This document shows, one piece after another, positions 34,362 through 52,300 of a stretch of 64,000 bases of DNA; positions within the stretch are counted from its first letter, which is position 1, and each line of letters opens with the position of its first letter. The DNA is taken from positions 13,277 through 77,276 of the forward strand of contig JAVJUS010000126.1 of NCBI GenBank assembly GCA_040220455.1, given 5' to 3'. Position numbers: made by a program. Origin of the DNA: Azospirillaceae bacterium. Its GTDB lineage: Bacteria; Pseudomonadota; Alphaproteobacteria; DSM-16000; Inquilinaceae.

Positions 34362-37300
34362 CACCAGCAGGACGACGGTGAAGCCCTCGCCAGCCAGGTC
34401 CATGGCGACGGTGCGCATGGCCATGTTCACCGCCGCCTTGGAGGTCCGGTAGGCGAGCGCGCGGCCGCCGGTGTTGTCGCCGATCGAGGCGAGGCCGGAG
34501 GAGATCGTCGCGATCTTGCGCCCGCTGCCGGCGCGCAGATGTCCGAGGAAACCCTCCGTCACCCGCATGGCGCCGTAGAGGTTGGTGTCCATGACGTGCT
34601 GCCAGGCGGCGAAGTCGGTGTCGCCGATCGGGTCGTAGGGCCCGCCGACGCCCGCATTATTGATCAGGAGGTCGATGCCGACGCCGCGCAGCCGCTCCGC
34701 CAGGATACCGACCGAGGCCGCGTCGGCGACGTCGAGCGGCGCGACCGCCACGTCGCCGTCGATCGCGGCCAGATCGCCGGCCTTGTCCGGGTCGCGCACG
34801 CCGGCGATGACGGTCCACTCCGCCTCGGCGTACTGCCGCGCGAATTCCAGGCCGAGGCCCCGGTTGGCGCCGGTGATCAGGCAGGTCGGCACGGTCGTGT
34901 CTCCTCGATGGTCGCGCGGGGGATCGTCGTGCGGGGGTCGATGGTCGTGCGGGGGGTGGTCGTGCGGGGGATGGTCGCGCCGGTCGGGGGTGGCGGCGTG
35001 GGACCGCGCGCGGCATTCTCGGCGACTGCAATCATCCTGCCGCGATATCGTCGGATTCCGGTGCGATGCAACCGCGTCGCCCGTCATCCCGTTGCTGCGC
35101 GGGAACCCGACGGCGCGCGACCGCCGAACAAGAGCCCGGGAGATCACCCATGGCCGCCCCGACCGCCTTCGCCTCCCCCGTCCCGCCCCCCATCGCGACC
35201 CTTGCCGCCGCCGCCGCAATCGCCCTCGGTGGCCTGCTGGCGAGCGCCGATCCGGCCGCCGCCCAGCGCCAGGACGGCTCCTATGACTATGTCGGGGAAT
35301 CCTGGCAGGGCACGATGCTGGTCGAGACCGACAGCGACGGCTACACCTACTTCGACATCTACAACCGCAACCCGCCCCTGACCTGCGGCGCCTTCGGCCG
35401 GGCGGAGGCCCGCGACGACCGTCTGACCTGGACCGACCCGACCAATGGCGCGCGCCTCGTCATCCGCTTCTTCGAGGACAACGCCGAAGTCGAGGCGACG
35501 GACGGCCTGCCGCGCGGCTGCGGCCTGCGCGGCCAGATCGCGGGGATCTATCTGGCGACCGAGGAGGCCCCGGACCTCGACCGCGACCAGGTCCGGCGCC
35601 TGCAGTCGAGCCTGGACAAGCTGGGCTTCGATCCCGGCCCGGTCGACGGCGTGATGGGCCCGCAGACACGCGACGCGCTCAACGACTTCCAGGCCGATGC
35701 CGGCCGGCGCGAGACCCGGGCGCCGGCGCTGGCCGATCTCTGGGCGGCGGAGCGCGCGCTGGCCGCCGCGACCGCCGGGGTCGCCGGGACCACCGGCGGC
35801 GCGGATCAGACGGGCGCCCCGCCGAAGCCGGGCGAGAAGCCCGTACCGCCGGCCGCGCAGACCGTGGAGCCTGCCTGGACGACCGATATCCCGCAGGCCT
35901 TCCACGGCTGGCTCGACCGCATCTACGGCGAGCAGGTGGCGCCCGCCAATATCGACTTCGCCAACCCGCCCTTCGAGGTGGCGCTGGTCGACCTGGACGG
36001 CCGGCCGGGCAGCGGACCGAACCAGACCGAGGTGCTGGTGCTCTGGAACGATCGGGCCTTCTGCGGCGAGTCGGGCTGCGCCTTCGACGTCCTGCGCTAC
36101 GACGGCAACGCCTACGAGCCGGTGCTGGAATCCACGGCCGAGCGCGTGGCGCTGGGCGCCGGCTACACCAACGGTCTGCGCAACCTGGTCGTCGACGGCC
36201 GGGTCCTCACCTGGGACGGCGAAACCTACGAGGCCCCCCTCTATGAGCCCGAGCCCGTGCGGTAAGGTCGTCGGACAGAGGTCCGGTAGGTTGCCCGGCG
36301 CCGCAAGGCGATGCGCAACGGCAATGACGGTGCCGTCGCCCACGGCCTTCGGCCGTGGACGACCTACGCTCTCCTCACGCCGGCGCTTCCGCCGCTTCGG
36401 CCGGTGACGCGATGTCGGGCTTGCGGGCCTCGGCGCGGGCGAAGGCCGGGCGTTCCAGCAGGCGGCGGGCATAGGCGTCGACGGCGGCGCTGGGGATCTC
36501 GACCCCGCTGCCGATCGCCCAGGACAGCGTGTGGGCGGCGAGGATATCGGGCACCGTCAGACGATCACCCAGCAGGAAATCGCCCCCGCCCAGCCCGGCC
36601 TCCAGCACCGGCACGGCGCGTGCGAACTCCCACGCCGCTGTCTCCATGATCGCCGGCACGCGCTTGTCCTCCGGCAGGACGAAGCGATGCTTGGCCATCG
36701 TCCAGAGCGGCTGCTCCAGCTCCGTCGCCACGAAGTAGCACCACTGGTCGAAGCGCGCGCGCCCGGCCGTCCGCGGCTCCGGCGCCAGGCCGGTGGCCGG
36801 GTGTCGGTCCGCGATATAGGTGCAGATGGCCGCGGATTCGGTGAGCACCAGGTCGCCGTCGACCAGCGTGGGTACCTTGCTCAAAGGGTTGAGGCCGAGA
36901 TACGGCTGTGTCTTGTGCTGGTCGGTGAAGAAATCGACCCGCACGAACGCGTAATCGGCCTCCACCTCCTCGAGCGTCCAGAGGGCACGCAAGGTGCGGG
37001 TGCGCGGAAAGCCGTAAAGGCGGAGCATCGGCAGCGGTCTCCGGTATCGGGTGGTCTGTCGGCTGGTGTCGCTCGGTTCGGCGCTCGGGCGGCGCGCGAT
37101 ACCGGCCCTCAGCCGGCGCGGAAGATCAGGCAGGTCGAGGTGCCGTGGGCCACCAACCGGCCGGCGCCGTCGCGCAGATGCGCCTCCGCCGTGCCGGCGC
37201 GCCGACCGACAGAGAGCGTGCGCGCTTCGGCCGTCAACGGCCCGCTGTCCGGCGCCAGGCCGCGCAGGTAGGAGATCTTGATCTCGAGCGTCGTGTAGGC

Positions 37301-49300: not shown

Positions 49301-52300
49301 CGTCGTCAGGATCACTTCCGGCCGGCAGTCCTCGACGATCGCGAAGACCCGGTTGGTCGCCCGGCTGCCGCTCGGCGGGTAGGAGGTCACGGCGACCACG
49401 CCGGCCTGCAGCGCGCCGAAGAAGGCCGCGACATACTCCGCCCCCGGCTCGTAGAGCAGCACCGCCCGGCCGCCCGCCAGGCCGCGCGCCGAAAGCGCCG
49501 CGGCGATCCGCGCCGCATGGGCGGCGAGATCCCGGTAGCGCCAGAGCACGCCCTTGCCCTCGCCGTCCTCCAGGAATTCGAGGGCCGGCCGGTCGCCCTC
49601 GTGGGCGGCGCGGTAGCGCAGGATGTCGACGAAGCTCTCGCACGCCTCGCGCCGCGCCGGCGGCGCCTTGGGGCTCGCGGTGACAGGATCCATCGCGCGA
49701 GACGGCATGATCCGCTCCTCCGTACGGTCGGGGTCGCGGCGTCCGGAACACGCACCGGCGCCACAACGATCAACCTTAAGCCGAGAAGCGAAACGCTACA
49801 CTATTATAGAGAACGAGGAAAAGAGGCCGGCCCCGGTCGGAAGGGTGCTGTCCGCCGATCCAGCGGGTCCGGAAACGACCTTTTCGACCGGGCTGGCCGC
49901 GAAACCGCCCCGCCGATCCGGCCGGCGGCCCGGCTCAGGCCTCCGGCCAGGCGATGTCCTCGACCGGGACCAGGCGCCCGAAAGCCGGGCGGGCGAACAG
50001 GAACCCCTGGATCAGGTGGACACCCAGATCCTCGAGCGCGGCCAGCTCGCCGGGGGTCTCCACCCCCTCGGCGATGACGGTGATGCCGAACTCCTCGGCC
50101 ACCGCGAGGGTGCTGCGCACGATGGCGCGGCGGACCCGGTCGCCGTCCAGGTTCCGGGTCAGCTTCATGTCGAGCTTGATGATGTCCGGCTGCAGATCGG
50201 CCAGGAGATTGAGGCCGGCATGCCCGTCGCCGAAATCGTCGATGGCCGTCTGCAGGCCGTGGCGCCGGTACTCCTCGACGATGCGAGAGAGATGGGCGCG
50301 ATCCTCGATGCGCTCGCCCTCGGTGATCTCGAAGATGATCCGGTCGAGCGGCAGGCCGCAGCGCCGCGCGGCGGTCATCGTCGTGCGGATGCAGTTGGCG
50401 GGCTCGTAGACCGCGTTGGGCAGGAAGTTGATCGACACCCGCTCGGCCAGCCCGAGGCCGGTCGAGGTCTCGATCGCGCGGACCCGGCAGAGCTGGTCGA
50501 AGGCGTAGCGATTGCCGTCGTCGACGCGAGAGAGGATGCTGCCCGCCGGCTCCCCATTGACGCCGCGGACAAGGGCCTCGTGGGCGAAGATCGAGCGGTC
50601 GCGCAGATCCACGATCGGCTGGAAGGCCATCGCGAAATCAAAATCGAGCTTACGTTTCCCGTTTTCCGCGCATCTCTCGCAGCCCACCTTCTCGTCTTCC
50701 GTGCCCGCCTCCGGAGCCTCGTTCTCGGCCGTCATCCGTCACAGTCCCGAATTCCGCGTGTCTTCATCCCCTCCGTTCAAGCATGCGCGAGGCTAACGAG
50801 GTGTAAACGCCCGTGATCGATCGGGCCGCTCGGCCCCCGGCGGCCGCCCCCGACGCTATGCGCGCCTAGTCTTTCAGGCGTACCCAGGCGGCATCCTTCG
50901 AGGCCGAGTCCACGACCGCCGAGATGAAGCGCACGCCGTCGAGACCGTCGCGCACCCCGGGCAGCAGACCCGTCGCCGGATCCGGGTCGCGGCCCTCGAG
51001 CCGGGCGGTGATCGCCTCCGCCGCGTCGGTGTAGATCTGGGCGAAGCCTTCCAGATAGCCCTCGGGATGGCCCGGCGGGACACGGCTCGCCCGCCCCGCC
51101 TCGGGCCCGGCGCCCGGCCCGCCCCGGGTGATCCGGCGCGGCGGCTCGCCATGCGGCGAGAAGACCAGCGTGTTCGGCTCCTCCTGGAACCATTCGAGCC
51201 CGCCGGTCTCGCCGTAGATGCGCAGGCGCAGGCCGTTCTCGTTGCCGGGCGCGACCTGGCTCGCCCACAGCATGCCCTTGGCCCCGCCGGCGTAGCGCAG
51301 CAGGACGTGCGCGTTGTCGTCGAGCCGCCGGCCGGGCACGAAGGCGTCGATATCCGCGGCCAGGCTCTCGAGCTTGAGCCCGGTCACGAAGGCCGCCAGA
51401 TTGTGGGCGTGGGTGCCGATGTCGCCGGTCGACCCGGCCGGGCCCGAGCGCGCCGGGTCGGTCCGCCATTCGGCCTGCTTCAGGCCGGAATGCTCCAGCG
51501 CCGTGGTCAGCCAGTCCTGCGGATACTCGACCTGGACGACCCGGATCCGGCCGATCTCCCCCGCCGCGACCATCGCCCGGGCTTGGCGCACCATCGGATA
51601 GCCGGTGTAGTTGTGGGTCAGCACGAACACGCGGCCCGACTCGTCGACCCGTCGGACCAGGTCCTCCGCGTCCTCGACCGAGGTGGTCATCGGCTTGTCG
51701 CAGATGACGTGGATGCCGGCATCCAGGAACGCCGCCGCCACCTTGTGATGGACGTGGTTCGGCGTGACGACGGCGACGGCGTCGATGCCGTCCTCGCGCG
51801 CCGCCTCGGCCCGCGCCATCTCCAGGAAGTCGCCATAGGCCCGCTCGGCCGGGATGTGGCACTCCCGCGCCGAGGCCGCCGCCCGCTCCGCGTCGGAGGA
51901 CAGGGCGCCGGCAACAAGCTCCCACCGGTCGTCGAGCCGGGCGGCGATGCGGTGCACGGCGCCGATGAAGGCGCCCTGCCCACCGCCGACCATGCCGAGC
52001 CTCAGCCGCCGGGAAACGGGCGCGCCCTTGCTGCCTTCGATGGCCATTGTCGCGTTCTCCTCTCGATCCTCAGCGGTCCAGGCCCAGCATGCGGCGGTTG
52101 GCCGCCTCGTCCGTGCCGGCGCCGGCGAAGTCGTCGAAGGCCTGCTCGGTGACGCGGATCAGGTGGGCGTCGATGAACAGCGCGCCTTCCCGCGCACCGT
52201 CCTCGGGATGCTTGAGGCAGCACTCCCACTCCATCACCGCCCAGCCGTCGAAGTCGTAGGCCGTCAGCTTGGAGAAGATCGAGCCGAAATCGACCTGGCC

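Follow-up and report, generated by a model that had tools for sequence, protein, structure and literature searches.

As toxins, polyynes act potently against fungi, bacteria and algae, and the alkyne at their terminus can be used as a chemical tag. Bacterial polyyne gene clusters, including those for protegencin, caryoynencin, cepacin, collimonin and ergoyne, have in common a core comprising a fatty acyl-AMP ligase (FAAL), three desaturases plus an acyl carrier protein (ACP), as well as a thioesterase and a rubredoxin (PMC8406139, PMC9828172). Thiotemplated polyyne formation has been demonstrated for the pgn and cay clusters: in the reconstitution by Kim, Ishida and Hertweck, the ligase loaded fatty acids onto the ACP in vitro, a "desaturase triad" worked on the tethered chain and the thioesterase was required for product release, with ligase, ACP, desaturase triad and thioesterase being sufficient (PMC9828172). 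Rubredoxin or ferritin markedly raised the yield, and pgnDEFGH alone still gave protegencin (PMC9828172). Here we describe a related locus in a window of 64,000 nucleotides (positions 13,277 to 77,276 of contig JAVJUS010000126.1, assembly GCA_040220455.1), which is the whole stretch of DNA analyzed and belongs to an uncultured "Azospirillaceae" metagenome-assembled genome (MAG; Rhodospirillales, Alphaproteobacteria). By homology and synteny, six of its genes, encoding a FAAL, two desaturases, an ACP, a third desaturase and an alpha/beta-hydrolase, are the core bacterial polyyne cassette known from the pgn, cay, ccn and col clusters. Taken as a whole, the locus is probably this biosynthetic cassette together with a separate MarR/RND-LolA/DUF1302 transporter that would provide polyyne export and self-protection.

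The six-gene biosynthetic cassette

A scan with desaturase 3, restricted to one genome per species, returned 80 loci, and the 86 related loci in all were each searched by tblastn with all window proteins (L001, L003 and L005 are metagenomic loci; other L-numbers denote related genome or module loci). The FAAL, the first two desaturases, the ACP and the third desaturase were present in 80 of the 86, the other six being contigs that end too early. Every locus with a desaturase 3 homolog and enough flanking sequence carried these five genes, and the hydrolase was absent only from an actinobacterial subset, a subclade without thioesterase already described by Mullins et al. (PMC8406139). All six proteins are syntenic with their counterparts in cassettes of Burkholderia, Caballeronia, Collimonas, Streptomyces and Gynuella, with identities of 42-68%. 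Gene order is the same in B. stagnalis (L010) and Collimonas (L040), and Caballeronia peredens (L042), named as a carrier of the cepacin biosynthetic gene cluster (BGC) by Mullins et al. (PMC8406139), has all six genes at 44-58% identity. Since the six-gene order recurs in 60+ unrelated genomes, the arrangement reflects more than chance. The original prediction, drawn from the sequence alone, knew of no characterized system with this composition and was mistaken in this respect, since the composition is that of the conserved bacterial polyyne core (PMC8406139, PMC9828172); this core is already known and experimentally dissected, and it is not a new kind of system.

Assignment of the ligase as a FAAL was based on its ranking against protein families and PDB sequences and on an end-to-end, gap-free alignment to the FAAL structure 7r7e. 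FAAL families of NCBIfam scored 468-433 bits compared with ~200 bits for acyl-CoA ligases, and FAALs came out on top among PDB sequences (7r7e at 3.7e-152, 3kxw and FadD23/32/28), with acyl-CoA ligases reaching ~1e-23 at best. Both rankings thus agree with the predicted FAAL rather than with an ordinary acyl-CoA synthetase. The protein is 40-65% identical to the FAALs of polyyne loci, its ATG is preceded by a GGAGGAG ribosome-binding site, and its expected substrate is a C16/C18 fatty acid, with which it would charge the cluster ACP after activation.

All three desaturases have intact di-iron histidine boxes, are arranged in the order Des-Des-ACP-Des and are 46-68% identical to their cassette counterparts. 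Desaturase 1 corresponds in synteny to the desaturase that comes first in polyyne cassettes (46-62% identity), and desaturase 2, with a GAGGAGG ribosome-binding site before its ATG at 46588, is 48-64% identical to its cassette homologs; the QNNHH variant of its third box is kept in 8/8 aligned homologs, including those of Burkholderia, Collimonas and Streptomyces. Desaturase 3 is 49-59% identical (E ~1e-130) to desaturases of Burkholderia gladioli, Burkholderia spp., Collimonas, Paraherbaspirillum (Oxalobacteraceae) and many Streptomyces, the identity to the B. gladioli homolog being 51% over the full length. Housekeeping desaturases were rejected because the NCBIfam DesA equivalogs scored far below their cutoffs on the window desaturases (61-84 bits versus cutoffs of 400-500), and the JamABC terminal-alkyne cassette was rejected because the window has three desaturases and a thioesterase. 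As a separate observation, two genes of Gynuella (L102) encode fusions, one of desaturases 1 and 2 (618 aa; L102:4775-6631) and one of desaturase 3 with the thioesterase (671 aa; L102:7094-9109); as Rosetta-stone fusions, they speak for the physical desaturase/thioesterase complex that was proposed from mutational data (PMC9828172).

The ACP, 41-70% identical to cassette ACPs, carries its phosphopantetheine serine in a conserved YGLDS motif, and its N-terminal motif, GVLSGFAKRLGL, is closely conserved in the nearest relatives (L005, L001 and L003). The syntenic hydrolase directly follows desaturase 3, is 30-51% identical to its homologs and retains with them the catalytic triad (the AHSLG nucleophile elbow, the VHDxxD aspartate and the GLGH histidine). 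Pfam and NCBIfam scans thereby upheld the predicted FAAL, carrier protein, three desaturases and hydrolase, as well as the MMPL-LolA fusion described below. In the same scans no ketoacyl-synthase (KS), ketoreductase (KR) or dehydratase (DH) domain was found in 36375-50735, in line with the predicted lack of a ketosynthase; domain scans found no polyketide synthase (PKS), acyltransferase or glycosyltransferase among the cluster genes, and there was no P450 or other tailoring enzyme at the cluster.

By orthology with the homologous pgn and cay systems, for which these steps have been shown, the FAAL would adenylate a long-chain fatty acid and load it onto the dedicated ACP, the three membrane desaturases would jointly introduce conjugated triple bonds into the ACP-bound chain, and the hydrolase would then free the finished acyl chain from the ACP. 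The mechanism originally guessed was therefore largely right with respect to FAAL loading, carrier-bound desaturation and hydrolytic release, all of which have been shown for the cassette (PMC9828172), the export that it added being the part that we infer.

In a neighbor-joining (NJ) tree of the concatenated core, built without support values, the window grouped with L005, L003 and L001 and outside the clades of Burkholderia, Collimonas and actinobacteria, and the clade holding the window otherwise consists of metagenomic sequences alone. A 2021 survey divided the polyyne clade into five major clades, three betaproteobacterial, one gammaproteobacterial and one actinobacterial, and its text makes no mention of Alphaproteobacteria (PMC8406139); the later literature that we searched reports neither an alphaproteobacterial polyyne cluster nor an exporter of the RND-LolA/DUF1302 type. 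What is new is modest: the locus is a rubredoxin-less member of an uncharacterized clade, its host is an uncultured alphaproteobacterium, and it is coupled to a MarR/RND-LolA/DUF1302 transporter for which no link to polyynes had, as far as we found, been described before. Together with its metagenomic relatives (L001, L003 and L005), the locus represents an uncharacterized clade that reaches uncultured Rhodospirillales and is a reasonable lead for a new polyyne.

The MarR/RND-LolA/DUF1302 transporter module

The first gene of the module, which starts 8 bp past the hydrolase stop codon, encodes a MarR-family regulator. Its domain match is weak, yet homologs are conserved (identity is 58% for L005, 48% for Gynuella and 48-51% for modules that stand alone), so that the MarR regulator of the original prediction is real, and in related loci its gene is always placed directly upstream of RND-LolA. 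The RND part of the next protein matched the HAE3 model TIGR00921 at 232 bits, under the cutoff of 351.9, and its hydropathy fits a 12-transmembrane RND protein with two periplasmic loops. In Foldseek searches with an AlphaFold2 (AF2) model (pLDDT 85.8), the RND part matched MmpL4/5/3, HpnN and NPC1 and the C-terminal domain matched LolA3 (9tp6; TM-score 0.89), a modeled structure that supports a transporter composed of a lipid-type RND protein and a LolA fold. Several of the best structural matches of the RND part, mycobacterial MmpL4/5, have been solved with the acyl carrier protein AcpM; contact between the transporter and the cluster's own ACP is only an idea prompted by these MmpL-AcpM structures. 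In the fusions, a signal-peptide-like hydrophobic linker (approximately residues 809-826) precedes the LolA domain, and a true signal peptide is found on the LolA-like homolog of L092, which is unfused; both features place the LolA domain in the periplasm. The RND-LolA fusion family comprises at least 120 protein sequence clusters. The DUF1302 gene starts 3 bp past the RND stop codon, and in related loci it invariably comes after RND-LolA (34-51% identity); the DUF1302 domain and signal peptide of its product fit the predicted outer-membrane barrel.

The original prediction had taken the product to be a polyunsaturated (olefinic) acyl chain destined for a lipid of the envelope and delivered to the outer membrane by the MMPL-LolA and DUF1302 proteins. 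Structural likeness of the RND part to mycobacterial MmpL transporters, of which MmpL3 is a lipid transporter, would suit such a product, as would the lack of a polyyne-type resistance thiolase in the window, and aryl-polyene lipids use LolA-like, RND and thioesterase genes for outer-membrane localization (PMC8253772). However, the three desaturases are syntenic homologs, and probable orthologs, of the polyyne triad and not of the housekeeping type, the cluster has neither an acyltransferase or glycosyltransferase to anchor the acid to a lipid nor a KS or PKS, and homologous cassettes release free polyyne acids (PMC9828172). An olefinic envelope lipid is thus very improbable, and the product expected from the identity of the cassette is instead a conjugated polyyne toxin.

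The MarR, RND-LolA and DUF1302 genes form an autonomous module, separate from the cassette and probably extending through the hotdog thioesterase gene to 37109. It adjoins a polyyne core in at least eight loci (the window, L005, L011, L020, L026, L056, L070 and Gynuella L102) that span Alpha- and Gammaproteobacteria and Bacteroidota and show both co-directional and divergent arrangements; among them are four genomes of marine gammaproteobacteria and one Crocinitomicaceae MAG, and gene order in L005, the closest metagenomic relative, is as in the window. A bootstrapped NJ tree of the transporter (200 replicates) grouped the window with L005 (98% support), sister to a group in which the polyyne-linked copy of Gynuella clusters with stand-alone copies (100%), and the polyyne-linked transporters were monophyletic in 0/200 replicates. 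This suggests that the association between module and polyyne genes has probably been gained or lost repeatedly, which in turn argues for a functional link. The pattern favors a role of the module in polyyne efflux and self-protection.

In such a role, MarR would control the envelope transporter module, the HAE3/MmpL-like RND pump would extract the hydrophobic acid from the inner membrane, the tethered periplasmic LolA-like domain would shield it across the periplasm and the DUF1302 outer-membrane protein would pass it out of the cell. By such a route the producer would secrete a thiol-reactive toxin and at the same time protect itself from it. It is the entire part played by the module in polyyne handling that we infer here. 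Polyyne export has been shown experimentally in no system, the MFS or RND genes of other clusters being presumed exporters, and according to a 2022 review export and self-survival in Burkholderia polyyne producers had not been elucidated experimentally (PMC9579380). The repeated pairing of module and cassette therefore provides a testable hypothesis on how producers export and survive polyyne electrophiles, and it bears on the cargo of a widespread orphan family of RND-LolA/DUF1302 transporters.

Several observations weigh against reading the locus as a polyyne cassette with its own exporter. The nearest characterized cassettes are only 42-60% identical, too distant to predict chain length or how many triple bonds are formed, no product has been observed, and the organism is an uncultured MAG. 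Neither a rubredoxin nor a MasL-type resistance thiolase is encoded in the window, the former having been sought throughout the 64 kb with the CxxCG...CPxC motif and by tblastn. The AF2 model gives no helix for the linker (residues 795-832, pLDDT below 50), which in the window protein is weakly hydrophobic (KD 1.46), and a search of three intergenic regions for MarR operator inverted repeats found only GC-rich hairpins beside the EAL stop codon. Transport might also be directed inward; the authors of a study of Thalassolituus oleivorans proposed uptake for an MMPL-LolA fusion. Finally, the module is present in just 5 of the 80 genome polyyne loci, and it is also met in housekeeping contexts where there are no polyyne genes (L089, L090, L092, L103 and Marinobacter L104).

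These last points bear on whether cassette and module are mere neighbors, the transporter being a general system for long-chain hydrophobes (alkanes, fatty esters or envelope lipids), in efflux or uptake, rather than for a polyyne. A metagenome scan with RND-LolA returned 15 loci, of which 0/15 had polyyne genes and whose flanking genes were unrelated; in Marinobacter fonticola and one other genome, MarR, RND-LolA, DUF1302 and alpha/beta-hydrolase genes lie among housekeeping genes. Since the module occurs alone in such contexts it is not polyyne-specific, and the eleven genes are not one system as had been claimed; conservation across genomes likewise holds for the six-gene core and, for the module, in the small fraction of polyyne loci given above. 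Additional points in favor of mere neighbors are the unrelated genes that flank stand-alone modules (TonB receptor, MOSC, RimK, RlmL, ribosomal and fad genes), the 42-fold induction of the T. oleivorans fusion on n-C28 (PMC6304351), the cofitness of DUF1302/DUF1329/RND genes with pleiotropic envelope and Tween or ester growth phenotypes, and the absence of the module from most polyyne loci. Nevertheless, cassette and module are adjacent in eight loci that belong to three phyla or classes, in differing orientations and with two well-separated exporter subfamilies, MarR directly follows the thioesterase in the same direction in both the window and L005, and polyyne BGCs typically include some exporter. 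We therefore regard a chance neighborhood as rather unlikely. As an observation on the stand-alone form, its four genes (L103:9392-15414, L104:9464-15453 and L092:9461-14462) encode MarR, RND with a fused or separate LolA-like protein, DUF1302 and an alpha/beta-hydrolase, and it is widespread in marine bacteria, e.g., Marinobacter, Kordiimonas and Pelagibius.

Absence of a rubredoxin could mean that the cassette is cryptic or crippled and that, without this and possibly other partners, it yields little or no product in its host. The tblastn queries were four cassette rubredoxins and one unassigned 50-aa open reading frame (ORF), with a best E of 0.044; in L003 and L011, tblastn revealed rubredoxins that the motif scan alone misses. 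The marked effect of rubredoxin or ferritin on yield in reconstitution (PMC9828172), and the fact that rubredoxin is missing from the closest relative L005 as well as from the window, are in keeping with a crippled cassette, but the ORFs are all intact with conserved catalytic motifs and coding-type GC content at third positions, and a rubredoxin may lie elsewhere in the genome. Moreover, cassettes lacking rubredoxin occur in several lineages (L005, L020, L026 and L056). Two Mycobacteriaceae without it were kept inside the polyyne clade by Mullins et al. (PMC8406139), and on account of these, and of the protegencin made from pgnDEFGH without the rubredoxin gene (PMC9828172), we treat rubredoxin as accessory and its absence as not disqualifying. 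A cryptic or crippled cassette is thus quite improbable. With no rubredoxin in the window, the electrons have to be supplied by a redox partner whose gene lies elsewhere.

A thiolase gene adjoins the polyyne core in 23 of the 86 related loci (e.g., L001:533-1726 and L003:12735-13910), and none of the RND-LolA exporter loci is among these 23. MasL is the resistance thiolase of the massilin producer, and polyynes alkylate the thiolase cysteine (PMC9098870); thiolase genes beside polyyne cores are consistent with MasL-type target-duplication resistance as in Massilia. A more specific proposal, to which we give only tentative credence, is that the module is a dedicated, chaperoned trans-envelope route for the polyyne acid in which LolA-like shielding replaces the target-duplication resistance of other producers. 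If so, this would provide a natural substrate class for the widespread orphan HAE3/LolA-like/DUF1302 transporters, and uncultured Alphaproteobacteria would be shown to have a polyyne pathway that does not depend on rubredoxin and gives a new product.

Gene calls, accessory genes and genomic setting

At ~70% G+C the raw ORF lists of the window were noisy, and ORFs were therefore filtered by third-position GC (GC3), leaving one unbroken minus-strand gene run (36375-50735). Together with the Pfam and NCBIfam scans, these calls gave 11 co-directional minus-strand genes at 36375-49708, the number and direction originally predicted (Table 1). Where the longest ORF was too long, the start was moved downstream on the basis of homolog alignment and ribosome-binding sites: the longest-ORF extents were 46686-47738 for desaturase 1, 45572-46726 for desaturase 2, 45149-45538 for the ACP, 42347-43279 for MarR and 37109-37693 for the hotdog gene, and the refined starts are 47657 (or 47630), 46588, 45496, 42892 and 37612, respectively. 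Intergenic spacing across the cluster is 3-263 bp, with gaps of just 3-4 bp between the RND, DUF1302 and hotdog genes. GC and GC3 of the cluster are those of its flanks, for which reason a MAG chimera was rejected.

Table 1. Features of the polyyne-type locus and its margins, in window positions
Feature	Positions	Strand	Basis and remarks
Fatty acyl-AMP ligase, PgnD/CayA/JamA-type	47921-49708	-	AMP-binding 229 bits and AMP-dom_DIP2-like (Pfam)
Desaturase 1 of polyyne triad	46686-47657	-	FA_desaturase; delta-9-like His boxes HRFFSH, HRKHH, HNNHH
Desaturase 2 of polyyne triad	45572-46588	-	FA_desaturase; boxes HRMAAH, HRRHH, QNNHH
Acyl carrier protein, PgnG/CayD/JamC-type	45149-45496	-	PP-binding 56.8 bits; stand-alone, 115 aa
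Desaturase 3, JamB/CcnN/PgnH-type, delta-12/FAD2-like	43996-45093	-	FA_desaturase 124 bits; boxes HCIAH, HVHNMHH, HTAHH
Alpha/beta-hydrolase thioesterase, CayF-type	42901-43875	-	Abhydrolase_1/6, Hydrolase_4
MarR-family regulator, first module gene	42347-42892	-	MarR_2 31 bits versus cutoff 27; NCBIfam MarR-type matches
HAE3/MMPL-type RND fused to C-terminal LolA-like domain	39003-42230	-	MMPL, Sterol-sensing, Patched; LolA_like E = 8.7e-51
DUF1302 outer-membrane protein	37617-38999	-	DUF1302 65.5 bits; N-terminal signal peptide ending AAAQG
Hotdog-fold (4HBT/PaaI-like) thioesterase	37109-37612	-	4HBT, DUF4442; TIGR00369 80.7 bits
Glutathione S-transferase, last co-directional gene	36375-37028	-	GST_N, GST_C; 80 bp downstream of hotdog gene
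EAL gene	49935-50735	-	Upstream of FAAL; no conservation beside related cassettes; left out of cluster
Upstream intergenic region	49709-49934	-	AT-rich promoter-like island TCTATAATAGTG, ~49806-49817, read from sequence

Two further genes follow DUF1302 in the same direction. The first had been predicted to encode a PaaI thioesterase; a hotdog thioesterase was found, and the PaaI label did not hold, since only the generic hotdog model was passed and the PaaI equivalog TIGR02286 scored 37.8 bits, under its cutoff of 118.9. Its best PDB match, 2pim, is among PaaI-like thioesterases. Homologs (41-46% identity) adjoin polyyne cores in L001/L002, L023 (Paraherbaspirillum) and L083, and the gene holds the slot of the second alpha/beta-hydrolase of other export modules; speculatively, its product may edit or hydrolyze stray acyl-thioesters. 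The glutathione S-transferase (GST), which the original prediction had included with reserve, does have the domains and the direction claimed, and its membership in the cluster is uncertain: a GST gene is nearby in just one related polyyne locus (L003, 34% identity), a weak parallel. Detoxification of a thiol-reactive, electrophilic polyyne by the GST would be plausible chemistry but is speculative. A convergent gene comes after the GST gene.

Upstream of the cassette, the AT-rich island lies ~100 bp from the FAAL start in a region of ~72% G+C and is a candidate promoter or operator, to be taken only as a lead. A promoter consensus scan of 36000-51000 gave nothing significant, the island included, and terminators occurred at background rate.

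By protein comparison (seryl-tRNA synthetase and the RND protein), the next named relative of the host is Fodinicurvata (66%). The chromosomal surroundings are ordinary (716-4279; 53296-57173), with a ccoNOP cbb3 oxidase operon at one end of the window and genes for DhaK (Dak1), PTS EI and an HPr-like protein near the other; hisD, serS and an RpoH-like sigma factor gene are also present. Two adjacent large ORFs on the minus strand, 10638-14309 (1223 aa) and 14387-16105 (~572 aa), have coding-type GC3 and no Pfam match and occupy the part of the window with the lowest GC (0.639). The 1223-aa ORF has no PDB sequence match and a Gly/Ala-rich, hydrophobic C-terminus, and the pair may encode acquired toxin-like or surface proteins.

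Comparison with known systems

The analogies with mycobacterial FAAL/MmpL loci and aryl-polyene (APE) clusters that had been drawn for this locus hold as functional resemblance and not as kinship, since the defining PKS and KS genes are absent. A mycobacterial FAAL-PKS-MmpL locus was rejected because there is no PKS and the carrier is a stand-alone 115-aa ACP. As in the window, a biosynthetic cluster of lipid type includes, with the APE genes ApeK/L/M/N, a thioesterase along with a LolA-like chaperone and an RND transporter (PMC8253772), whereas KS/CLF, KR, DH, acyltransferases and the LolB-like ApeN of APE clusters have no counterpart in the window; an aryl-polyene or xanthomonadin cluster was rejected on the lack of KS, KR and DH in the gene run.

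Among transporters, AmeABCD of Castellaniella defragrans resembles the module in having an HAE3-family RND protein, a periplasmic protein of the LolA superfamily and, in the outer membrane, a DUF1302 protein. Deletion of ameABCD decreased monoterpene tolerance and increased net Nile Red influx, suggesting efflux (PMC6394551), and genes of DUF1302/DUF1329/BNR/RND clusters of Shewanella and Pseudomonas are cofit in RB-TnSeq (10.1101/072470). Unlike in all of these, the LolA-like domain of the window is fused to the RND protein, a MarR gene leads and there is no COG4447/BNR component; no such (AmeC-type) beta-propeller domain was found in the cluster ORFs or in the called genes of modules L102-L104. 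In T. oleivorans, the MMPL-LolA-like fusion TOL_3187 is followed by the outer-membrane "porin" gene TOL_3188, a likeness to the window that is drawn by description. Both genes were strongly induced by a long-chain hydrophobic substrate, for which uptake or porin delivery was proposed (PMC6304351), and unlike the window module they are tied to alkane growth rather than to a biosynthetic cluster.

With respect to biosynthesis, the protegencin (pgnD-I, Pseudomonas protegens) and caryoynencin (cayA-F, Trinickia caryophylli / Burkholderia gladioli) clusters have the same core parts as the window, which differs in its alphaproteobacterial host and in lacking a rubredoxin/ferritin, a P450 (CayG) and an AraC-type activator (PgnC). 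Their exporters are also unlike that of the window, caryoynencin having an RND-plus-HlyD system and pgnC being adjoined by a drug transporter. The cepacin (ccn, Burkholderia/Caballeronia) and collimonin/massilin (col/mas, Collimonas/Massilia) clusters have the six genes in the order of the window at 42-58% identity (L010, L042 and L040), but in addition a rubredoxin and either an MFS exporter or the resistance thiolase MasL (PMC9098870), none of which the window has. The literature searched, which did not include the original ergoyne paper, gives no description of exporter genes as part of the ergoyne cluster. The locus whose overall architecture is closest to that of the window is from the ergoyne-producing genus, Gynuella (L102, GCA_050296195.1). 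Its desaturase fusions, its rubredoxin gene and a terminal second alpha/beta-hydrolase in place of the hotdog thioesterase and GST set it apart, while its co-directional order of FAAL, Des-Des, ACP, Des-hydrolase, rubredoxin, MarR, RND-LolA, DUF1302 and hydrolase joins the same cassette to the same module, with an RND-LolA protein that is 58% identical to that of the window.

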